Shown here: one piece after another, positions 5,857 to 62,073 of the stretch | How the letters are laid out: each line of letters begins with the position of its first letter | How positions within the stretch are numbered: the first letter of the stretch is position 1 | Virus record (IMG/VR): IMGVR_UViG_3300017788_000020 | Location: 565-64,564 of that record | Origin: a virus | Taxonomy: Duplodnaviria > Caudoviricetes | Length of the DNA: 64,000 nucleotides | Reading direction: 5' to 3' (one strand) | Notes under the pieces: generated by a model | Databases searched by the model: none | What the model saw: only the letters and a program-made list of their open reading frames with translations | What the model was told of the DNA's origin: nothing | Position numbers and translations under genes: made by a program

Positions 5857-6432
5857 ATGGTAAATGAGTTTAAAGCCAAAAATGGCTTAATCACGCCTGT
5901 TGTACAAGCTACCGTCACAACAGGTACATCACCCCTCGTTGTCGCATCGACAACTGTGGTTTCTAATCTAAACTCCGATCTCTTGGACGGTTACCAAGGA
6001 TCGGATTTTCCGCGCAAGGCTGAAAATGCTACTGTGTCTGGTGCGTGGACTATCAACAACGACTTAGATATCAACGGCACACTGAAGGCCACAGCAAAGT
6101 CGTTCGTTATACAACATCCAACAAAAAAGAATAAACGCTTACAGCACGGAAGCTTGGAAGGACCGGAGCACGCAGTCTATGTACGCGGTCGCGGAGAGAC
6201 GGCCATCATCAAATTTCCCGCATATTGGAAAACGCTAGTCGATCCTGATACAATCACGGTACAGGTAACCCCGATAGGTATCGCCGACGACAACACGATT
6301 GCGGTGCATAGAATAAACAAAACAAGCGTGGTTCTGTCTTTTAGAATCACTCCGCGGCCTTATTTCTATTTCATCACCGCAGAACGTAGAGACATACCTC
6401 CGCTCGTTACGGAAATCCCCGCTAAAAAATAA
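5857..6432 (+). CDS. tail fibre tip/chaperone-like protein
   Basis: NLNSDLLDG fibre motif; C-terminal KSFVIQHP...LQHGSLEGPE...AERRD domain common at phage fibre ends. Confidence 0.7.
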   Translation: MVNEFKAKNGLITPVVQATVTTGTSPLVVASTTVVSNLNSDLLDGYQGSDFPRKAENATVSGAWTINNDLDINGTLKATAKSFVIQHPTKKNKRLQHGSLEGPEHAVYVRGRGETAIIKFPAYWKTLVDPDTITVQVTPIGIADDNTIAVHRINKTSVVLSFRITPRPYFYFITAERRDIPPLVTEIPAKK

Positions 6433-6456
6433 GGCCGCAGTGCTGCGGCCTTATTT
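6427..6456. terminator. bidirectional intrinsic terminator
   Basis: aaataaggccgcag-tg-ctgcggccttattt between convergent genes. Confidence 0.8.
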
Positions 6457-8889: not shown

Positions 8890-9839
8890 TGGCTAACACA
8901 ATTTTTAAAGACCTGACGACTAAAGCAGCACAACTTGTGTCAACGGACAGAGTCGTATCTATATGGTTAGGCGATTCAATTATCGCAGGGACTTCGATGG
9001 CGCCGACATCGACGATCATTGATCCAGGAAGTATATATCCTGCGACACTGACGCGCGGGCAGTTTTGGGATAAATGGGTACACGCTGATAGGCTTGTTTT
9101 ATCCGACGGTTCGTTTAGCTGGGATGACGTGACGACCACAAGCGGCGGTATCACAAGCGGTGTCGGCTATACGCCACCATTCTATGGACACTCGCTATAT
9201 CTCGGAGGCTCCGGTACCGCAGACTTTACCGCCAACATCAACCACGTAAACGCGGTAAAACACTACACAGTAGTGCTTGGTATAAGCGCGTCCAGCATTA
9301 ACGACGATTTGTCGGTTGTCACAAACCCATTGGCGCACTGGGAACCTTCTGTAGATAACGGAGCTTTTGAGCTACTTACCGAAAATTACATACAACCCGC
9401 ACTATCAAACCTACGTGCTGGTGGGACTAATACGCTGTATCTAGAAGGAATCTATTTACACATAGGTAATGATGCGTACAACGGCGCAACATACTTCCCG
9501 ATCGAGATAGCGCAAAAATACGATATCTATTTACGTAGACTAATATTCGCGCTAGAGCAGTTCCTCGAATTCTCCGGTATTCCTGTTTGTATATTACAGA
9601 CGCCGCAGCTACCTTCCGATTATGCGCATGCAGGCACTATTCGTGCCGCCCAAGCGCGCGTAGCGGCTGCACGGCCTAGAACAATCCTGGTCAACCCAAA
9701 CCAGTTTCCACAAGGCACGGACCACGTACACTTTAACGCCATGGGTAACATAAAGTACGGTTACGAGGCGGCACAGGCAGTACGCGCAGCGTTCCCAAAC
9801 CAGTTCGCACAACTAGCTGCGAAAGCCGATCACTGGTAA
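8889..9839 (+). CDS. SGNH/sialate O-acetylesterase-like protein
   Basis: WLGDS nucleophile motif, HIGND, DHVHF (DxxH). Confidence 0.7.
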   Translation: MANTIFKDLTTKAAQLVSTDRVVSIWLGDSIIAGTSMAPTSTIIDPGSIYPATLTRGQFWDKWVHADRLVLSDGSFSWDDVTTTSGGITSGVGYTPPFYGHSLYLGGSGTADFTANINHVNAVKHYTVVLGISASSINDDLSVVTNPLAHWEPSVDNGAFELLTENYIQPALSNLRAGGTNTLYLEGIYLHIGNDAYNGATYFPIEIAQKYDIYLRRLIFALEQFLEFSGIPVCILQTPQLPSDYAHAGTIRAAQARVAAARPRTILVNPNQFPQGTDHVHFNAMGNIKYGYEAAQAVRAAFPNQFAQLAAKADHW

Positions 9840-9855
9840 TATTTAACTAAAAGAG

Positions 9856-9877
9856 AAGCAGGCGCAGGCGCCTGCTT
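9856..9877. terminator. terminator-like hairpin
   Basis: aagcaggcg-cagg-cgcctgctt downstream of the esterase gene. Confidence 0.55.
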
Positions 9878-9938
9878 ATAGCTACATCTTTATGTTATGA
9901 ACCTCTTCCGCATCATTGGAAAGAGGTTCATACGTTTC

Positions 9939-10074
9939 GAAGACTTATAATGTGTGATACGCCCGTCAATACCCAGACTCTTAGCTAACAGCAGTACTTC
10001 ATGAGCTAACATGAAGTACTGCTGTTAGCTAAGAGTCTGGGTATTGACGGGCGTATCACACATTATAAGTCTTC
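9939..10074. repeat. perfect 65-bp inverted repeat (6-nt loop) copied from RNAP intein 1 (55173-55249)
   Basis: Arms 9939-10003 and 10010-10074 are exact reverse complements; one mismatch to the intein sequence. Confidence 0.95.
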
Positions 10075-10269
10075 TATGAATGTGATGTGTGCGCCCTCTT
10101 CGTTTGCCCACGCCTCTGCGGCACTTCTGACGTAGTACAAGCTGAGTAACAATAGTGCGTATAGACACAGACCACTACAAATCAGTTGTATCGCGGTCGG
10201 TTGGCGCGACACCTTTCGCCGCGTAAATGGCGCAGCCGATATCGAAAACTTATTTTTTCTTGTAAACAT
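10063..10269 (-). CDS. small hypothetical membrane protein; its stop lies in the hairpin arm
   Basis: One hydrophobic segment; last ORF of the - island. Confidence 0.45.
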   Translation of the reverse strand: MFTRKNKFSISAAPFTRRKVSRQPTAIQLICSGLCLYALLLLSLYYVRSAAEAWANEEGAHITFIEDL

Positions 10270-10552
10270 GCAACTCGACGTAGAGTTTTTCTAGCGCAAA
10301 TCCTTGCTCTACATTTAACTTCACAAGCTCGTTCTGCACTACTCTGTGCAGGTCTTGGTATGTCATACCAGAGTCGATCTCGATGCGAACGACCGGTGCT
10401 GGCGGCGCACAGACTTTGGTCGGTACTGTTTGTTCTATGTTGGACAAGGCTTTCTTGAGTACTTTATGATTACTCGATCCTTTGGTGCTCGTCGCCTTGA
10501 TGACTAGTAGCACAAGCGCTGCCGCATATGCGAAGAAGATTAAGCTAAGCAT
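10250..10552 (-). CDS. hypothetical protein with N-terminal TM helix
   Basis: MLSLIFFAYAAALVLLVIK; AGAAAAG upstream. Confidence 0.55.
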   Translation of the reverse strand: MLSLIFFAYAAALVLLVIKATSTKGSSNHKVLKKALSNIEQTVPTKVCAPPAPVVRIEIDSGMTYQDLHRVVQNELVKLNVEQGFALEKLYVELHVYKKK

Positions 10553-10748
10553 TTCTGTCTTTTCTGTACAGGAGCACACCTAGACCTACACTTGCGATTG
10601 TGCAGGATAGGGCTACCCAAAACACAGGGCTCGGGACCGCGGTAAAGGTTTCGGTAACAACATAGATACCTGCGGGTACCACAAGACCTAAGACAATACC
10701 GTGCAGCATTGCTGTTGCAATGGCTGCCGCTAGCGAATATGTTTTCAT
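10545..10748 (-). CDS. small 2-TM membrane protein
   Basis: Two hydrophobic helices; ATGA overlap with neighbour. Confidence 0.55.
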   Translation of the reverse strand: MKTYSLAAAIATAMLHGIVLGLVVPAGIYVVTETFTAVPSPVFWVALSCTIASVGLGVLLYRKDRNA

Positions 10749-12393: not shown

Positions 12394-12405
12394 AATACTT
12401 ATGAC
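12394..12405 (-). promoter_or_regulatory. putative phage early promoter GTCATAAGTATT
   Basis: Exact recurrence of the motif. Confidence 0.7.
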
Positions 12406-49624: not shown

Positions 49625-50002
49625 ATGGCAAACAACCGCATAACCAACGTCCTATCAAAGCAGGTGCTAGAGGGGATAAACTCCAGCATAGCTAGCCGAC
49701 CCGCGCTAGGCGCAGCAGCTGCGAAGTTCGTGGCGCGCGGTTTGGACGAACAGCTGCGCCGTAAACGCATCGTATTGCTTAACCTACATACGTCTCGTGA
49801 ATCAACCTTCTGGCAAATACTGCAAAACACTCCAGAACGTTTCCAGATCGTAAGCGAGAAAGAGTCTCACCAGCGAGGCGAATATGTAGTGCGTGTTATA
49901 TTTTACGAAATTGGCGAAGATTTGCCCATATATAAATCACAGGCTGCGCTTATCGCTGAATACACAGGTGCGCCACAAGAAACAGAGTTAGATGATGTCT
50001 AA
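49625..50002 (+). CDS. hypothetical protein
   Basis: Between portal and RNAP, overlapping the RNAP start. Confidence 0.6.
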   Translation: MANNRITNVLSKQVLEGINSSIASRPALGAAAAKFVARGLDEQLRRKRIVLLNLHTSRESTFWQILQNTPERFQIVSEKESHQRGEYVVRVIFYEIGEDLPIYKSQAALIAEYTGAPQETELDDV

Positions 50003-53000
50003 AGAGCTTCAACAACACATACAGTTGCTAGAAGAAGTTCGTCGTATTGTGGCGAACATGTTTCCGATAACTGCCCGCAACGGCGCCACGCTGACTGTAT
50101 CCAATCTTCGTTGGTCAGACGCAGGCCAGCATGTTATGGATAACATCACTGCCCAAAAGGAGGCTAAGTTGCGCGAGCGGTCCGTTGACAGTAAGCTGAC
50201 AGCGGATGTAGAACTAAAGGATGCGACAGGGACGATACTCGATAGCCGCAAAGGCTACTTCATACTGTCGATGCCGCACATCACGTCGCGTAATTCGTAT
50301 ATCGTTGACGGCAACGAAGTTCAGATAATCAATCAATTACGTCTTCGTCCAGGTGTTTACACGACCATAAAGGCCGGGGACACCGTGGAGGCGTATTTGA
50401 ACACGACCGCCGCCGGTACATACAAGTTACTGCTCGACAGGAAGACTGGTGTTATTCGCCTGAAGGTCGGTACAGATAAGAAAGTGCCTGTGTATTCTGT
50501 ATTACTTGCCCTGGGCGCATTACCGGGCGACTTACCAGACATATTCGGTGACCTGCTTGATGTGAATGAGAAAGCCGCGCGTATAGAGCCTGATACGCAA
50601 AAACTGTTGTTGGCTTTATGGCCTTACGCCAAAAATGGCTCTTTAATTGAGAACCAACTCGAGGCGCGTAAGTTCTTAGAATCTAAACCACTCGATCCGG
50701 CGGTCAACAAACTGACACTGGGTATTTCTGGTATTGACAAGATCGACAAGGCCGCGGTAGCCGCCGCCATACGCAGATGTATTTTTATATCGAAAGGTAT
50801 GGCAGACGAGGATGACATCGAGTCGCTCGCGTTCAAGTCGATTCACTCAATCGAGGATTTTATTCCAGAACGCCTGCGGCGCAAAGAAGCGGCAGTAAAG
50901 CGCATTGTCGCTTACCAGATGACACGCAAAGCGACTATACCGGCCGTACTACCATCGTCACTCTTTGATAACAATATCAAAGACTTTATGACAACATCTG
51001 AGTTTACCAGATTCTCAGACCAAAATAATCCGATTGATATGAACGCCGTCGCGTCAACCACCACGATCATGGGTGAGGGCGGTATACAAAGTACGCGTGC
51101 GGTCAGCGACGCCGTGCGCGCCGTACACGCCTCGCACTTCGGTGTGCTTGATCCGGTACATACCCCAGAAGGACCTAAGATCGGTATTACCGGACACCTT
51201 TCGCTGGGCGCGGAGAAAATTGGGAATACGCTTTTCCTCACAGTCTTTGATGCGCGCACAGGCGAGAAAAAGCGGATGTCCGTTGAAGCGCTTATGCCGT
51301 ATACGGTAGCTTTTGCTGACCAGTATACAAACATCGGTACCGGTACACCTAAGCTGAAGGATAAATACACGACAGTCAAGGCGCGTAAAAACACCAAACT
51401 GCTTGAGGTCAATCCTGCGGACGTGGATTACATATTCAACGATCCAGCAACCTTCTTCTCGTCGAGCACGTCCGTCATTCCGTTTGTTAACAGTAATAGC
51501 GCTAACCGCGTTCTGATGGGCGACAAACACATCGAACAGTCGGTGCAATTGGCTGATCCAGACAAGCCTTTGGTTTTACACAGACTGACTAAAGTCAACA
51601 AAGGCTATCTAGAGCTCTTAGGAGAGAACTTTCTTGTTAAAGCGCCTGTAGCCGGTACGGTGACGAAGATCACACCGGACACTGTTTTCATAAAAGAGGA
51701 CAAAGGTAAGACACACGCGGTAGCTATCCATAATAACTATCCGCTCAACTCTAAGACATTTTTGCACGATGAGCCTATTGTGACTGTAGGTGAGCAGGTC
51801 CGGGCCGGGCAAGCCTTGGTACGTAACAATTTCACCAAAGACAACACGCTCGCCCTCGGTAAAAACCTTCTCGTGGCTATGGTACCTTACAAAGGTTACA
51901 ACTTCGAGGACGGTACAGTCATCTCCTACAAAGCCGCACAAAAGCTCGCATCTGTGCACAAAAACGAGCACAGAGTGGAGAAAGAGGACGGCGTGGCTAT
52001 AGGGCTAGCGACGTACATTGCCCGATACCCACAAAATCTTGATAAGTTCCGCAAAGGCTTTAGAGATAACTACGACGAGAACGGTATTATAAAAAAAGGT
52101 ACGGTTGTTCACAAAGACGACATTCTTATACCTGCCGTAAAAGAAGTCACGCTAAGTAAAACTGAATTAGTTAATATACACAAAAAGCTGCTCTCGACCG
52201 CATATTCCGATATCTCGGAAACGTGGACAAAAGACGTTCCTGGCGAAGTTGTGGATGTCATCAATGAGCGGGGCTTTGTTAAAGTTGTTGTACGCAGCGT
52301 CGAGCCGGCCGTTGTAGGTGATAAGCTGTCCGCTTTTGCAGGAGCTAAAGGCATCATTACTAAGATTCTCGGACCTGACGAAGTCTATAAGGATGAGAAA
52401 GGTGCTGAGATTGATGTGTTGTTCAATTTCCTAGGTACCCTAGGTCGCGCCAATCCCGGCTTCATACTAGAAGCTGCTGCCGGTAAAGTCGCGCAAAAAA
52501 CAGGCAAGCCTTTCTATGTCGACAATTTCAACATGACGCACGAGAGCAATCTTGCGCATGTCCAAGAAGAACTCAAGAAGGCTGGAATAAGCGACGCCGA
52601 GACCATCACCAATCCGACAACCGGCCACAAGATGGAGAATGTGCTGGTCGGTCCGCTGCATACATTAAAGCTCAAGCACATGGTCGAGCATAAATTCTCG
52701 GCCCGCGGCGCAGTCGGTCTCCCGTATACGACGCTAGAGCAGCCTAAAAAAGAATCCGGCGAGAGTGCGCAACGTATTGCGCCCCTCGACATGTCGTCGC
52801 TGCTTTCTATGGGCGCTACAGCGTTTCTCAGCGACGCCTACGGCATCAAGTCGCAGAAAAACGATGATTACTGGTTAGCGCTACAGACTGGCCGCACGCT
52901 ACCTGCGCCGCAAACTCCTTACGTGGCAAATAAGTTTGTGACGATGATGCTTGGTGCAGGTATTAACCTAAACCAGACTGGCTCTAAACTAACCGCCACG

Positions 53001-56000
53001 CCTATGACTGATGAAGAGATTTTGCGTATCAGTCACGGGGAAATCAAAGAACCACACACGCTGAAATCGTCCTCTTTCCAACCCATGAAAGCGGGCTTGT
53101 TTGATGACGACTTGACGGGCGGTATAGGCGGTAATAAGTTCTCCCACATACGACTAGCAGAACCTATTATTAATCCGTTGATGGTGGAGGCCGTTGTGTC
53201 TGTGGGCGACTTTAACTCAGGTGTCGAGGTCGAACAGGTGCTCAACGGCACTAAATCAGTCACCGCAGACGGCCTAGTCGTCGACGGCGACGGCGGTGCG
53301 ACAGGTATCGAAGGTATCCGCACTGTCCTCAAAAAAGTGGATATAGCTAAGGCTATAGAAAAGACAGGTGACGCTGCCAAAAACGCCAAAGGCTCAGTAC
53401 TTAACAAACTTAACCGCCGCTTGCGTTACCTACGGGCACTCGAGTCGATGGGTATGCGACCAGAAAACGCGTACATAAATCAGCATGTTCCGGTTATTCC
53501 CCCGAAGTTCCGGCAGATCACGGAACGGACAGACGGGTCAGTATCTGTGGCGGACGTGAACCATCACTACAGAGATCTGTTAATCATCAACAATCAGCTA
53601 GAAGAGCTGAAGAATATCGGCGTAGACAAGAAACACACGGCTGCTCTATCTAGAGCATTGTATGACGGCGCTAGCGCGTTGGCTGGTTTAGGCGATTCCG
53701 TAACAAAAGGTAGAGAATACAAAGGCCTTTTGGAAGAGATAAACGGCGTTAAGGAATCTAAATACGGCTACTTCAAGAGTAAGCTACAGTCGCGTCCACA
53801 AGACCTGTCTGCGCGGTCGACTGTTATTCCAAACCCTAAATTGGATATGGACCACATTGGTATCCCTACCAATATGGCGCTCACCATCTACACACCTTTC
53901 GTCATAAAGCGCCTCGTACAAAACGGGTACGCGCCACTAGATGCACGCAAGATGGTAAGAGAGCAGTCTCACGAGGCAGTGAGAGCTTTGGAAGTAGAGA
54001 TGGAGGACCGGCCGGTACTTATGACCAGAGCGCCATCTCTACACAAATTCAACATGCTGAGCTTTAAGCCAACACTGATTAACGGCAAAGCGGTAGAGGT
54101 AAATCCCCTTATTGTAGGGGGCTATAACATGGACTTTAACGGCGATGCCGTCTGGCACTCATGCATATTTGCTCTAGAGGCTGAGAAAGCGGATGAATTC
54201 TATGATTTTGTGTTGACTAATAGCATGTTTAATGATAGATTGTGGACGAAAGAAGAATTGGCTTCTTTCTTACACAACACAAAAATGACAGCAAGATTTG
54301 ACGTGAAGCTTCCTTATATAGAAGGACACACAGTACACTGCATAGCGCTAGAAGATTTCCCGAGAGGGGAGCGTAGCCACTGTAGCATGGGTCAGTTTGG
54401 TATTATTGAGTGGTACCAAGCGCCGCCCGGTATTAAAGCTTTGGCGTACGATAACTTAAATCAAAAACTAGAGTGGCGACCTGTCACTTTCTACTCTGTT
54501 CACCACGGATGTGAGCGTGAGATCATTAACCTTGCATCAGGTCGTCAGATGTTCGCCGATGACGACCCTCGGGCGGTATTTGGTATTGAGAGAGGCACGT
54601 TAACCTTCACTAGAAACACTCCCTCTAATGCCGCTGAAAATCAGATGTTTGTTCCTCGTGTAGCTAATATGAACGTCACTAATTACGGAGATCAAACAGA
54701 GATACAAGTAGTGACCGATAAAACACGAAAAAATCCGTTACCTGAAACGCTTGCTTTAACAGCAGAACTAGGCTACTTAGTCGGTGTTATGGCCGGCGAC
54801 GGCTGGGTGTCTACTAATGACTCAATTAACATAGCAAGTATACGCCCAGCGATTCCTGCAAAATGTCAAGCAACTATAGAACAGTTGGCTGATAGAGTTG
54901 TCAAAGACACTGTCACAATATCTACTAAGTCCTTGGGAGAAAGTGTAAGACATACGTTTAGTGCTGCCGCTGTAGCAGATTTCTTAAAAGAGATGATCGG
55001 TTCTGGCGCTAAGAATAAGCACCTACCTGTGTGGTATTTGTCTGCCAACGAAGAATGCCGCAAAGGATTATTCGCCGGCTTGATGGACACTGATGGTTCT
55101 ATTTGCGTGGTGCAGGCTGTAGCTAAAGCGAAGCCTCAGCTACAGGCTAACTATACAAGCACAAGCTTCCGTTTAGCTCATGAAGTACTGCTGTTAGCTA
55201 AGAGTCTGGGTATTGACGGTCGTATCACACATTATAAGTCTTCTATGAAAGCGACCGATACGTGGGCAGCTTCTTTCTCCAATATGGACATCAAGCGTTG
55301 GGGCGGTAAGTACATGATGCATCCGGAGAAGCTTGAAAAACTCGCCTCTATAGAGGTAGATGAGACCTCGAACATTGCGGCACGGACTGACATAGTTCCC
55401 ATAAGCTTCGATTTAGCCAAGTATATTCAAAACAGCGTCAGTATGCCGAGGAACGCCCCGAAGGAGACGAAATCGTTGTATGTAACAATACAGAGGGCCG
55501 TCAAGCTCGGTAAACTTAGCCGCATGATAGCCAAGCGCGCAATATCTCTAATAACTGAAGAGACCTTACTTAAACATCCCGAAGGTGCGAAATGGTTACG
55601 TATTGTTGACGACACTTCAGTCAAATGGGACCAAGTCGCGTCTGTCGAGAAAACAGGCGTTTGCGAGACCGGATATGACCTGACAGTTCCGGGCTACGAA
55701 ACTTTCATGAACATAGAAGGGGTCATTCTTTCCAACACGGCAGGTATCCACGTACCGGTATCGGAAGAGGCTCGCCGTGAAGCGGTCGAGAAACTTATGC
55801 CGAGCCAGAACCTGATCTCTGTTCGTCACGAGTCCGCTATGCATACCCCCGGTAAAGAGACGGCACTCGGCATCTATTTGATGACAAATCCCAAAGGGGA
55901 GCCTACGGTTGTGCGCTCGCTGGACGATGCGGTCGCACAGCATGCACGGGGTAGTCTTAAAGTCAATGCGGCGATCCGTGTTGGCGATAAAGTGACGTGC

Positions 56001-58853
56001 GTAGGACAGAAACTGGTTGCAGACGTGTTCCCGGTATCTATGCGACCAGAGCTCATGGTCGTGGACGGCGACCTGCTTAACCAGTTGTGCTTGAAAGCCG
56101 CACGCACGTTACCTGCACGAGCCGCGGGCGAGATTATTAGCAGGCTGAAAGATCTTGGGAACCACTACGTCACAGAGATAGGCGCAGGCGTATCCTTGAA
56201 GGACCTGGAGTTCGACTACGAGAAACGGGATGCTGTACTGGATAAGTTACGCAAACGTGCCCCCATCGTAGGGTTCGACACCGCCGTGGAAGAGGCCGGT
56301 AGAGAGTTAGATGCGCTACTAGCGGCTGCGACTGATAACAGGTTTGTGGAAGCAGGCGTCACAAGTAAGGCCACAAGTAAGGGCGGTATGGTACGGCAGA
56401 TGATTGTCACACCCCTCGCTATTACGGACTCTAAAGGCGCGACAATTCCGCTTGTTGTCAATAAGTCGTACGCTGAGGGACAAGACCTGGGGTCGTACTT
56501 AGGGACCACGCCAGGCGCGCGACAAGGCCTTGTTGATAAAGGTATCTCTGTTGCTGATACTGGGTACTTAAGTAAGCTCCTAGTCAATGCTAACGCGACC
56601 AATAAGATCACAGTGGACGATTGCGGTACCGTAGACGGATTACTGTTGGATGTCGACGACAAGGAAGCACTTAATCGGTTCGGCGCTAAAGAACCTATAC
56701 GCAATGTAGTTATAACACCAGAAGTGGTTCGCAAACTTAAAGCCGCGGGCGAAAAACAAATACTTGCGCGATCGCCTCTTAAGTGTCGAGCACTCAGTGG
56801 TATGTGCGCAAAATGCGCCGGTGTGAACGAATATGGTGCGGCGTATAAGATTGGCGACAATGTCGGTATCACGGCCGCACAGGCTATTGGCGAACGTGCT
56901 ACGCAAGTAACACTTCAAAAGTTCCACTGCCTTGAGCGTACTACCATCTGCCTTGTGCGAAAAGGTGCTGAAATTTTCCACACAACACTTGGGCAACTAT
57001 TTGATGAGCATGAGACTCATCAAGAAGGTGATGAAGAGGTCGCCGAGGTTAGCGCCTATGAAGTGTGGGACCGCGGCGGCTGGACAAAAGTAAAGCGAGT
57101 ACTGCGTCACGCACAAGAGCCCGGAACAGAGATGGCCTTGATTAGATCTCGTACAGGACAGGCGGTTATTGCGCAGGATAACCACCCGCACATGTTATCA
57201 AAGGTCGCTGTTGCTTGTCCTACCTGCGCCACATGGCCTAAACGTATAAACGCGCGAGGTAGTCGTTACTACTGTCGTACATGTAAACACGGCTGGTCAG
57301 ATAAACCGGAAATGACTGTTGACTACAGCATGACGGCTAGTAGCGAGCTTGGTGACAAGACGCACGCGGCTTTGATTGACACGGGTCCGGTACCTACGCC
57401 GGCCACACCAATCATCCCCGATGGTTGGTTGGCTGGTATGTATATCGCCGAAGGCTCTCGCCTAGTCAGGGGCGGTTTGTACGAAGGCTTCTGTGTGTGT
57501 CAAAATGATGGTCCGATTAAAAGTCAGGTGTATGCGCGGCTAACTGACTGGCTACCTGACAGCAAAATCCAGCTATCTAAAACCGCTGTGCGTGTGTTGG
57601 AACCCGCGTTAGGTGAAAAGCTTACAAAGGTGCACGGTACCTATTGTCGAGATAAAGGGCTGCCTCCAGGTTGGAGCGGCTACCCATCCGTATGGTTGAG
57701 TCAGTTTGTAGCCGGTGTTATTGACGGCGATGGCACGCTTGTACGTAACCGTGACAGTCGCTGGACTACAGTACGCATAGACACCACTAGTTTCTTGTTA
57801 GCACAACAGCTTGTTCATATATTACGAACAGCCGACATCAAGGCGCGTGTTATAGTGTCGCCTTGGCGAAAACTAAGCTCGCATCAAGGATACGCGGTAC
57901 AGTTTGTGTATACAGAAAGAGCGCAGCAATTCTTAGGAAATGCCTGTACAAAATTAGTGGGTGTGGCTGCGAATCCTAAGAACAAAAAAGAAGATTATGG
58001 TCATGTCGTTGACTACGTAAAAATTGTACGCTATAGCGAGGCGCCTGCCGTATACGATATCGAAACAGAGACTGGAACCTACTTTGCTAATAGTTTCTGG
58101 ACACACAATACGGGGGGTGCTGTCGGCGGCAACGTCGTAGGTTTTGGACGTATTAAGCAACTGCTACATCTACCGCAGACAATGTCCGATAAGGCGGTTC
58201 TATCAGAGGAGACAGGTGTTGTACAAGCTATCGCACCGTCGCCGACGGGTGGCTGGCTTGTCACAGTTAATGGTGTCCGCCATTTCGTTGCACAGGAGTT
58301 AGGTCTAAAAATTAAGCAAGGCGACTCCGTTGTCGCGGGGCAGCAGATCAGTCTACGCGGCGTAGTGCAGCCTCATGAATTACTGGAGACGACCGGCGAC
58401 ATCGGGCTTGTACAGAATAAGATCGTCGACGATCTAAAGGGCGCGTACGGTAAGCAGAGAATTCACAGACGTATCTTTGAGACCGTAGTCAAGCCTATGA
58501 CAGACAAAGCCAGGGTTATTCACCCAGGCGACGCTGATAAGTTGTTTAACGTCTACGCTGGTGATACCTTACTCAGCAGCGTCATAGACGACTACAACAA
58601 GAAGCTTACGGCGAAAGGTCTGCGCCCCATTAAATCGGAAACAGCTTTGATGGGTATTGTGGCGATTCCGTTCCAGGACGAGGACTTTGTTGGTAGGTTG
58701 ACACACGAGCGTCTGAAAGACACGCTCAAGGGCGCGCCTGCGCTAAACCAGACGGTTGATATACAAGGCGACCACCCCGTGTCGCGGCTAGTCCTAAAGA
58801 ACTTTGGGCACGTAGACGACATAAAGAACGCGCCAAGAAGAAAATTATTCTAA
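49992..58853 (+). CDS. rpoBC: single-chain fused beta-beta' DNA-directed RNA polymerase with two inteins (~2029 aa if both splice)
   Basis: beta: HFGVLDPVHTPEG.KIG, GYNFEDG, GDKLS..GAKG, KLKHMVEHKFSAR; beta': HIRLAEP, VPVIPPKFR, RAPSLH, YNMDFNGD, TGYLSKLL, CGT..RSPLKC..CAKC, AQAIGERATQVTLQKFH/TGG. Confidence 0.95.
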   Translation: MMSKELQQHIQLLEEVRRIVANMFPITARNGATLTVSNLRWSDAGQHVMDNITAQKEAKLRERSVDSKLTADVELKDATGTILDSRKGYFILSMPHITSRNSYIVDGNEVQIINQLRLRPGVYTTIKAGDTVEAYLNTTAAGTYKLLLDRKTGVIRLKVGTDKKVPVYSVLLALGALPGDLPDIFGDLLDVNEKAARIEPDTQKLLLALWPYAKNGSLIENQLEARKFLESKPLDPAVNKLTLGISGIDKIDKAAVAAAIRRCIFISKGMADEDDIESLAFKSIHSIEDFIPERLRRKEAAVKRIVAYQMTRKATIPAVLPSSLFDNNIKDFMTTSEFTRFSDQNNPIDMNAVASTTTIMGEGGIQSTRAVSDAVRAVHASHFGVLDPVHTPEGPKIGITGHLSLGAEKIGNTLFLTVFDARTGEKKRMSVEALMPYTVAFADQYTNIGTGTPKLKDKYTTVKARKNTKLLEVNPADVDYIFNDPATFFSSSTSVIPFVNSNSANRVLMGDKHIEQSVQLADPDKPLVLHRLTKVNKGYLELLGENFLVKAPVAGTVTKITPDTVFIKEDKGKTHAVAIHNNYPLNSKTFLHDEPIVTVGEQVRAGQALVRNNFTKDNTLALGKNLLVAMVPYKGYNFEDGTVISYKAAQKLASVHKNEHRVEKEDGVAIGLATYIARYPQNLDKFRKGFRDNYDENGIIKKGTVVHKDDILIPAVKEVTLSKTELVNIHKKLLSTAYSDISETWTKDVPGEVVDVINERGFVKVVVRSVEPAVVGDKLSAFAGAKGIITKILGPDEVYKDEKGAEIDVLFNFLGTLGRANPGFILEAAAGKVAQKTGKPFYVDNFNMTHESNLAHVQEELKKAGISDAETITNPTTGHKMENVLVGPLHTLKLKHMVEHKFSARGAVGLPYTTLEQPKKESGESAQRIAPLDMSSLLSMGATAFLSDAYGIKSQKNDDYWLALQTGRTLPAPQTPYVANKFVTMMLGAGINLNQTGSKLTATPMTDEEILRISHGEIKEPHTLKSSSFQPMKAGLFDDDLTGGIGGNKFSHIRLAEPIINPLMVEAVVSVGDFNSGVEVEQVLNGTKSVTADGLVVDGDGGATGIEGIRTVLKKVDIAKAIEKTGDAAKNAKGSVLNKLNRRLRYLRALESMGMRPENAYINQHVPVIPPKFRQITERTDGSVSVADVNHHYRDLLIINNQLEELKNIGVDKKHTAALSRALYDGASALAGLGDSVTKGREYKGLLEEINGVKESKYGYFKSKLQSRPQDLSARSTVIPNPKLDMDHIGIPTNMALTIYTPFVIKRLVQNGYAPLDARKMVREQSHEAVRALEVEMEDRPVLMTRAPSLHKFNMLSFKPTLINGKAVEVNPLIVGGYNMDFNGDAVWHSCIFALEAEKADEFYDFVLTNSMFNDRLWTKEELASFLHNTKMTARFDVKLPYIEGHTVHCIALEDFPRGERSHCSMGQFGIIEWYQAPPGIKALAYDNLNQKLEWRPVTFYSVHHGCEREIINLASGRQMFADDDPRAVFGIERGTLTFTRNTPSNAAENQMFVPRVANMNVTNYGDQTEIQVVTDKTRKNPLPETLALTAELGYLVGVMAGDGWVSTNDSINIASIRPAIPAKCQATIEQLADRVVKDTVTISTKSLGESVRHTFSAAAVADFLKEMIGSGAKNKHLPVWYLSANEECRKGLFAGLMDTDGSICVVQAVAKAKPQLQANYTSTSFRLAHEVLLLAKSLGIDGRITHYKSSMKATDTWAASFSNMDIKRWGGKYMMHPEKLEKLASIEVDETSNIAARTDIVPISFDLAKYIQNSVSMPRNAPKETKSLYVTIQRAVKLGKLSRMIAKRAISLITEETLLKHPEGAKWLRIVDDTSVKWDQVASVEKTGVCETGYDLTVPGYETFMNIEGVILSNTAGIHVPVSEEARREAVEKLMPSQNLISVRHESAMHTPGKETALGIYLMTNPKGEPTVVRSLDDAVAQHARGSLKVNAAIRVGDKVTCVGQKLVADVFPVSMRPELMVVDGDLLNQLCLKAARTLPARAAGEIISRLKDLGNHYVTEIGAGVSLKDLEFDYEKRDAVLDKLRKRAPIVGFDTAVEEAGRELDALLAAATDNRFVEAGVTSKATSKGGMVRQMIVTPLAITDSKGATIPLVVNKSYAEGQDLGSYLGTTPGARQGLVDKGISVADTGYLSKLLVNANATNKITVDDCGTVDGLLLDVDDKEALNRFGAKEPIRNVVITPEVVRKLKAAGEKQILARSPLKCRALSGMCAKCAGVNEYGAAYKIGDNVGITAAQAIGERATQVTLQKFHCLERTTICLVRKGAEIFHTTLGQLFDEHETHQEGDEEVAEVSAYEVWDRGGWTKVKRVLRHAQEPGTEMALIRSRTGQAVIAQDNHPHMLSKVAVACPTCATWPKRINARGSRYYCRTCKHGWSDKPEMTVDYSMTASSELGDKTHAALIDTGPVPTPATPIIPDGWLAGMYIAEGSRLVRGGLYEGFCVCQNDGPIKSQVYARLTDWLPDSKIQLSKTAVRVLEPALGEKLTKVHGTYCRDKGLPPGWSGYPSVWLSQFVAGVIDGDGTLVRNRDSRWTTVRIDTTSFLLAQQLVHILRTADIKARVIVSPWRKLSSHQGYAVQFVYTERAQQFLGNACTKLVGVAANPKNKKEDYGHVVDYVKIVRYSEAPAVYDIETETGTYFANSFWTHNTGGAVGGNVVGFGRIKQLLHLPQTMSDKAVLSEETGVVQAIAPSPTGGWLVTVNGVRHFVAQELGLKIKQGDSVVAGQQISLRGVVQPHELLETTGDIGLVQNKIVDDLKGAYGKQRIHRRIFETVVKPMTDKARVIHPGDADKLFNVYAGDTLLSSVIDDYNKKLTAKGLRPIKSETALMGIVAIPFQDEDFVGRLTHERLKDTLKGAPALNQTVDIQGDHPVSRLVLKNFGHVDDIKNAPRRKLF
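54147..55736 (+). mobile_element. atypical intein 1 (530 aa) with LAGLIDADG homing endonuclease
   Basis: Interrupts DFNGD|TAGIHVP (equivalent to DFDGD-QMAVHVP); LVGVMAGDG and FAGLMDTDG motifs; block F/G KWDQVASVE..GYDLTVPGYETFMNIEGVILSN; first residue Ala. Confidence 0.85.
56928..58109 (+). mobile_element. canonical intein 2 (394 aa) with Zn ribbon and LAGLIDADG endonuclease
   Basis: KFH|CLERTT...QDNHPH...LAGMYIAEG...VAGVIDGDG...VYDIETETGTYFANSFWTHN|TGG. Confidence 0.92.
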
Positions 58854-58885
58854 AAACAAAGCCGCACGCGCGGCTTTGTTTTTTT
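58852..58885. terminator. bidirectional intrinsic terminator
   Basis: aaaaacaaagccgc-acgc-gcggctttgttttt. Confidence 0.85.
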
Positions 58886-60666: not shown

Positions 60667-60700
60667 AACCAGGTAGGTTACTTACGTAACCTACCTGGTT
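60667..60700. terminator. terminator hairpin
   Basis: aaccaggtaggttac-ttac-gtaacctacctggtt right after the DHH-like gene. Confidence 0.75.
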
Positions 60701-62040: not shown

Positions 62041-62073
62041 AAAAAAAGAGCCTGTCAGACAGGCTCTTTTTTT
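62041..62073. terminator. intrinsic terminator
   Basis: aaaaaaagagcctgtc-a-gacaggctcttttttt. Confidence 0.85.

Follow-up and report, generated by a model that had tools for sequence, protein, structure and literature searches.

A polymorphic 65-bp hairpin copied from a phage's own intein gene, probably a foldback repair scar

We found that a perfect 65-bp hairpin in the genome of an uncultured freshwater phage, built from two inverted copies of a short stretch of the intein endonuclease gene of that same phage, is present in some genomes and precisely absent from others, and that both states of the site occur together within a single natural population. The sequence observation is confirmed, contigs assembled apart from the record contain both outer junctions, and the hairpin does not appear to be a one-off chimera. 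It is probably a recent structural variant, a near-neutral repair scar that arose through the capture, at a break, of a foldback copy of intein sequence from the phage itself. What is newly found is the empty-site allele, which makes the hairpin a presence/absence polymorphism; the mutation class itself is already known. The phage is represented by IMG/VR virus record IMGVR_UViG_3300017788_000020, a linear metagenome-assembled fragment of 64,564 nt with a CheckV completeness of 33%, and the coordinates below are those of the window, by which we mean the whole stretch of 64,000 nt that was analysed (positions 565 to 64,564 of the record).

The entire insertion occupies 9939-10080 and is 142 nt long. 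Its two arms (9939-10003 and 10010-10074) are 65 nt each and 100% complementary, and they enclose a 6-nt loop, AGCTAA, at 10004-10009. BLAST comparisons within the record and within the window resolved the whole insert into two 71-nt inverted copies of one donor with a 6-nt offset. The first is an antisense copy at 9939-10009, the reverse complement of 55173-55243, which supplies the left arm and then the loop; the second is a sense copy at 10010-10080, equivalent to 55179-55249, which supplies the right arm and a 6-nt unpaired 3' extension of it, TATGAA (10075-10080). Read along the plus strand, the insert therefore runs antisense from 55243 to 55173 and then sense from 55179 to 55249. Each half is identical to the donor at 70 of its 71 positions, and the arms, which are identical to each other, share the one difference (at 9962 and 10051). 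Self-BLAST of the whole window revealed the match between the hairpin and the intein as the only long-range repeat, all remaining palindromes being 30-34 nt in length. Chance cannot account for a perfect palindrome of 65 bp with a match to a distant gene as well. An earlier note, made from the sequence alone, had described a perfect 65-bp hairpin with a 6-nt loop that reproduces 55173-55249 and had proposed a genome-wide self-comparison; the alignments and the self-comparison reported here bear out the description on each point.

Two classes of known element were considered for the hairpin and rejected. A mobile element of the MITE, REP or RPE type does not fit a single-copy sequence whose sole other match is the intein donor and which has no target-site duplication. 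A protelomerase target of the telRL type does not fit either, since the centre AGCTAA is not self-complementary, the record contains no Phage_integrase-fold match, and the hairpin is polymorphic and copied from coding sequence. As a separate observation, the motif TTCATA in the left flank (9927-9932, plus strand), which lies 6 nt short of the joint, can pair with the insert tail TATGAA across a 6-nt bulge, and the loop, tail, bulge and offset of the hairpin all measure 6 nt. The pairing may reflect microhomology or a ligation splint at insertion, or it may be chance; we estimate the chance of a 6-mer match within ~15 nt at <1%.

The donor segment (55173-55249, plus strand, 77 nt) comprises codons 1728-1753 of the RNA polymerase (RNAP) ORF and encodes LAHEVLLLAKSLGIDGRITHYKSSM. 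This ORF (49992-58853, 2953 aa) is a fused polymerase in which beta, with Rpb2 domains, is followed by beta', with Rpb1 domains, and it contains two intein/LAGLIDADG regions. Intein 1 lies at 54147-55736 on the plus strand and matches LAGLIDADG_3 and Intein_splicing (E values of 1.3e-06 and 4e-05). The donor falls in the second LAGLIDADG region of this intein, at intein residues 343-368, within the LAGLIDADG_3 match (304-373). The single difference between donor and hairpin affects the third base of the Gly codon at 55218-55220, where the hairpin has GGG in place of the intein's GGT, and it is synonymous. The earlier note had placed this synonymous difference at 55220 on both arms and had concluded that the hairpin is not a simple copy of the present intein, and the alignment agrees, both arms differing from the present intein allele. 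In two metagenome runs, X1 and X2, which are described below, the intein contigs (records 4, 5, 10 and 11) carry the T allele and continue into intein sequence.

The insertion lies in a non-coding spacer where two gene groups converge, as had also been claimed. On the plus strand, upstream tail-fibre-like genes and a weak SASA/esterase-like gene form an operon that ends at 9839. Facing it, small ORFs with no family match line up on the minus strand in an island that ends at 10250. A consensus scan placed a terminator-like structure, a GC hairpin followed by a T-run, at 9877-9856 on the minus strand, which is likely the end of this island. Since the terminator-like hairpin lies beyond the insertion, the insertion probably falls within the 3' UTR of this island. 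Folding predicts a native stem-loop at 9900-9930, which leaves 8 nt between it and the insertion on the left side. The minus-strand island is headed by a promoter-like, enriched GTCATAAGTA motif at 12396-12405, which has five matches in the window against 0.16 expected, a number that none of 100 shuffles reached. The other copies of this motif deserve a remark of their own: four of the five copies are intergenic heads of minus-strand islands, and one (54016-54025, minus) is inside the RNAP ORF, ~120 nt upstream of the insertion point of intein 1. A 40-aa ORF that overlaps the hairpin (9890-10012, minus) was rejected as a gene, with no Pfam match and a start buried in the stem; its ATG is created at the hairpin turn, and it re-encodes MLAHEVLLLAKSLGIDGRITHYKSS of the LAGLIDADG fragment.

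The hairpin was examined in contigs assembled apart from the record. Of the locus's sampled words, 0.86 are found in X1 and 0.78 in X2, two freshwater metagenome runs that come from separate studies. One of them may be the source sample of the record, which would reduce the independent support to a single run. Logan contigs of both (k=31) were aligned to 9300-10700. The left junction (9938/9939) was bridged by record 2 of X1 (541 nt, depth 6.7) and record 8 of X2 (60 nt, depth 4.8), and the right junction (10080/10081) by record 6 of X1 (1222 nt, depth 8.5) and record 12 of X2 (92 nt, depth 5.2). Every word with the hairpin-specific G/C variant is contained in a 54-nt unitig, 9939-9992, the depth of which was 18.4 in X1 and 12.6 in X2. 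These values are about twice the junction depths, as expected from two arms per filled genome. The 6011-nt intein contig of X1 (record 4) had a mean depth of 9.8 and is thus approximately single copy, which suggests that the inverted duplication is short; a large inverted duplication of the RNAP region was rejected on the same depth. In two further runs, X3 and X4, only flanks away from the hairpin were covered, at a depth of 2-3.

The turn of the hairpin (10009/10010) is a different matter from its outer junctions. No Logan contig of X1 or X2 extends over 10010-10020, and by our arithmetic the bin depths of 8.63 and 8.25 are fully explained by the listed records, so that the original assembly is the one source for the turn. 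Graph cleaning may have removed a connector of 30 words between a unitig and the reverse complement of that unitig, which would be an explanation and no demonstration. A contig-level counterpart of the read mapping that the earlier note had recommended across 9900-10100 came out in favour of both outer junctions in each of the two runs and left the turn uncovered.

These data bear on whether the hairpin, or at least its turn, could be a library or assembly chimera, produced by foldback reads, by inverted chimeras of the MDA type or by a de Bruijn mis-join through intein words. Strand-displacing polymerases do make inverted chimeras with short loops, and both the metagenomic assembly of the record and the missing contig at the turn are in keeping with such an artefact. 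We nevertheless regard it as rather improbable, because the outer junctions occur, at a depth matching the genome, in contigs of both runs, which belong to different studies, and because the variant-specific words stand at ~2x junction depth in both runs. In addition, the hairpin is located mid-way in a 64.5-kb contig with unique flanks, and it matches the intein over no more than 71 nt at a time, from which we infer that an assembly at larger k needed reads spanning the turn. Palindrome centres sequence poorly, according to the part of PMC4057610 drawn on here, and this, together with graph cleaning, would explain the gap at the turn. The hairpin does resemble the library foldback chimeras and long-palindrome problems treated in that part of PMC4057610 in its inverted repeat, its short loop and its hard-to-sequence centre, but differs from them in outer junctions found again in both runs with the depth of the genome, and in a clean empty-site allele.

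The empty-site allele is represented by record 13 of X2 (86 nt, depth 4), which joins 9938 to 10081 and skips exactly 142 nt. Its joint has no microhomology ('both' = 0) and no target-site duplication. In X2 the filled junctions have depths of 4.8 and 5.2, the empty site 4 and the flanks 10.3 and 7.8; the filled and empty depths hence sum to roughly the flank depths, and the filled allele makes up about half of X2. The empty-site record differs by one other letter within 10081-10136, and we infer that this letter lies ~26 nt from the joint, since 10136 is the last position of record 12 as well as of record 13. The extra differing letter identifies the empty site as a distinct haplotype and argues against a polymerase jump or a read-through slip. 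Moreover, the boundaries of the indel coincide exactly with the ends of the intein homology (71+71 nt). Taken together, the match of the boundaries to the donor homology and the lack of a direct repeat imply that the empty form is ancestral and that the hairpin is an insertion; an empty allele formed by slippage deletion was rejected on the same two grounds. With the empty allele at about the depth of the filled allele in one run, the hairpin is a recent presence/absence polymorphism and is not fixed in its own population. No empty-site contig was found in X1, for which there were contigs only, and these cannot show absence; the filled allele may be common there, something that a neutral insert would not call for.

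It is probable that the insertion arose from foldback copying and capture. According to this proposal, a 142-nt foldback (snap-back) copy would have been made of a 77-nt segment of the endonuclease gene in the phage's intein, and a break or nick in the spacer that separates the tail-fibre operon from the convergent small-gene island, a non-coding region, would have taken it up. The template for one strand would have been the intein itself or a GGG-bearing intein allele circulating alongside it. The second arm would then have been copied from the first, or else the two strands of one staggered fragment would have been joined at one end, and the product would have been ligated into the spacer via end joining. 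The insert would persist because it is non-coding and close to neutral, and the 65-bp duplex that it creates in the minus-strand 3' UTR, upstream of the terminator, would be a by-product with no selected function. The G shared by both arms possibly stems from a variant donor allele, for example that of a co-infecting strain, from an error in the first arm that was then copied, or from later homogenisation; X2 holds at least two haplotypes, which bears on the first of these options.

The hairpin has the make-up of a distant inverted templated insertion, in that its two pieces come from one distant donor locus in opposite orientation and the empty site lies at the ends of the donor homology with neither microhomology nor target duplication. 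This is the closest documented process. In the sections of the yeast study considered here (PMC11724301), complex insertions at double-strand breaks often consist of two fragments that stem from a single distant locus and are inverted relative to each other. Their overlap has a median of 50 bp, their junctions lie 2-20 bp apart, and microhomology of 0-4 bp marks the joins to the break; the same sections describe inversions that can also form within a single ssDNA molecule, and inversion junctions with a median microhomology of 6 bp (range 2-11) (PMC11724301). As far as those sections go, the phage hairpin is like the yeast insertions in its single distant locus, its inversion, its overlap of tens of bp, its gap of a few nt, its break joins within the 0-4 bp range of microhomology and a possible foldback of a single ssDNA. 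Unlike them, it is a natural standing polymorphism with copies of equal length, and it has no microhomology at the inversion junction, where the donor continues with ACGG after the loop and the insert has CATG.

The exactness of the two copies, 71 and 71 nt with a 6-nt offset at both ends, speaks against a simple snap-back plus trimming. A turn free of microhomology does not agree with plain polymerase foldback either. Matches to the Ku and ATP-dependent ligase families were not found in the 64.5-kb record, which is about a third of the genome. Equal strands of 71 and 71 nt, a 6-nt loop, a 6-nt tail and a turn free of microhomology are predicted together by one alternative alone, in which a double-stranded piece of the intein was cut with 6-nt staggers (55173/55179 and 55243/55249) and closed by a hairpin at one end. 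Closure would resemble the chemistry of tyrosine recombinases and protelomerases, the latter of which cut 6 bp apart and produce hairpin ends, and the capped molecule would have been unfolded by replication and inserted. This origin would, however, need two cut sites, which have no evident common recognition sequence, and a variant donor for the G on both arms; the 64.5-kb record, again about a third of the genome, has no gene of the Phage_integrase fold. We therefore assign it a low probability.

An origin from RNA has been weighed as well. A reverse transcriptase would have copied part of the RNAP mRNA and self-primed the second strand, and the resulting cDNA hairpin would have been captured at a break. 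The order of the insert on the plus strand, antisense arm, short loop and sense arm, is the classical shape of a self-primed cDNA, and one error common to both arms fits an error-prone first-strand synthesis. But the sense arm extends 6 nt past the 5' end of the antisense arm, for which self-priming needs a later trimming, and a polymorphism of the donor is a simpler account of the shared G. An RNA intermediate thus appears very improbable.

Folding of the hairpin with short flanks predicted that either transcript forms a perfect 65-bp stem of about -127 to -128 kcal/mol, and the earlier note's claim of a long dsRNA holds as a prediction. It is plausible that the duplex in the minus-strand 3' UTR would serve as an RNase III substrate. 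Hairpins cut by RNase III are a feature of phage transcripts, such as lambda sib in the retroregulation of int and the processing sites of T7 early mRNA. Like these, the present hairpin is a long duplex downstream of a coding region and is predicted to be a substrate of the host RNase III. In contrast to the lambda and T7 sites, which are imperfect, conserved and genetically defined, it is perfect, 65 bp long and polymorphic.

A functional RNA would take this further: RNase III would cut the duplex to yield an antisense RNA against the RNAP/endonuclease mRNA, or the hairpin would control mRNA decay from the 3' end; in one variant the decay of the island mRNA would be regulated as in lambda sib retroregulation, and the filled allele would be rising because it is useful. 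The extreme stability of the fold on both strands is compatible with such a role. So is its position, as the hairpin is probably transcribed, lying between the last island gene (10250) and the terminator-like structure at 9877-9856 and downstream of the motif at 12396-12405. In both transcripts, though, the antisense arm is locked by its perfect sense partner, and bacteria are not known to have machinery that loads such fragments as trans-acting guides. The filled allele, the sole one in X1 contigs and about half of X2, is at least tolerated, yet the site is polymorphic for presence and absence with an intact empty-site haplotype, the arms show neither divergence nor covariation that would indicate age or selection, and no counterpart was found in relatives or in collection scans. 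Rfam returned only sub-threshold look-alikes of miRNA precursors, which are expected of any long hairpin and were rejected as generic matches. We consider a functional RNA unlikely. Quite unlikely in our judgement is, more specifically, a newborn structured RNA whose filled allele is spreading because RNase III processing tunes the decay of the early operon or dampens the RNAP/endonuclease mRNA, with small duplexes acting on the mRNA of the phage itself or of co-infecting relatives that bear the intein.

The polymorphism, the lack of conservation and of covariation, and the sequestered antisense arm lead us to read the hairpin as a near-neutral scar. Of the earlier note's overall reading, the origin from the intein endonuclease gene, the convergent site and the fold stood, and the regulatory function did not. 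Antisense regulation of the RNAP/endonuclease mRNA is unsupported, given the polymorphism, the lack of a counterpart in relatives and the sequestration of the antisense arm. Interference with intein-bearing relatives is likewise unsupported, as none of five related records has the intein and none has the hairpin.

The comparison with relatives, which the earlier note had also suggested, started from eight loci of viral contigs that encode a related RNAP, fused in the same way, at 33-53% identity, a distance at which the comparison says little on the spacer itself. Five larger relative records, 537,815 nt in all, were searched, and the short fragments L007-L009 were left out. Intein 1 was found in 0/5 of these records, and the 316-aa gene that neighbours the insertion in 0/5. 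Full self-comparison of the same five records yielded no perfect long palindrome with a distant donor, and the only palindromes were two imperfect ones of 74-76% identity: one of 406 nt (74%) at 89011-89400 of record G002 (L017) and one of 166 nt (76%) at 64329-64488 of G005. With nothing comparable in the five records, the event appears to be singular and no habit of this phage group, as far as distant relatives can tell. A separate feature of these relatives is a tandem array with a 6-nt period at 64795-65062 of G004.

Wider collections gave a similar outcome. The locus had no match in 50,697 phage records by megablast and blastn, and a protein-pattern scan for the neighbouring 316-aa gene detected no related locus in IMG/VR viral contigs. 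Exact patterns of the turn, of the left flank and of the arm with the variant position open had 0 matches in IMG/VR and JGI metagenome contigs, in scans that may leave out the window's own record.

Long perfect hairpins can also be formed by template switching. Template-switch mutations, as Loytynoja and Goldman are said to have reported in 2017, create perfect hairpins in one event, and a preprint of 2023 on de novo miRNAs reportedly holds that a template switch yields a perfect reverse-complement repeat and thereby a potential RNA stem. A single event that gives rise to a perfect reverse-complement repeat, a potential RNA stem, is described in the available part of the work of Monttinen and Loytynoja (10.1101/2021.04.15.439925). 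The hairpins described there copy their immediate neighbourhood, whereas the donor of the phage hairpin lies 45 kb away and the insertion is a clean 142 nt.

If our reading of the hairpin as a captured foldback copy holds, it provides a clean natural example, in a bacterial virus, of a type of mutation known mainly from yeast and cancer genomes, and a single population shows the donor, the filled site and the empty site together. It would also mean that a perfect long hairpin, the raw material for RNA structures, can arise in a phage in a single step. For annotators it is a caution that a hairpin, however striking, may match a distant gene without being a regulator. The functional significance of this hairpin is probably small, and no long-standing question is opened by it.

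Two further observations concern other parts of the sequence. The 30-34 nt palindromes of the window lie at 6427-6456, 58852-58883, 60667-60700 and 62041-62073, and by the ORF list the first two are at convergent gene junctions; some of the four may be bidirectional terminators, and at the junction that received the hairpin the native palindrome is the one at 9856-9877. In four of the relatives, the DNA that matches residues 1-1377 of the RNAP extends over ~5.0-5.2 kb and not 4.1 kb (L006, 10001-15190; L007, 3570-8606; L008, 6305-11392; L010, 10001-15088), which suggests that their RNAP genes contain an extra insertion of ~1 kb, an intein or a lineage-specific domain, that is absent from the phage studied here.
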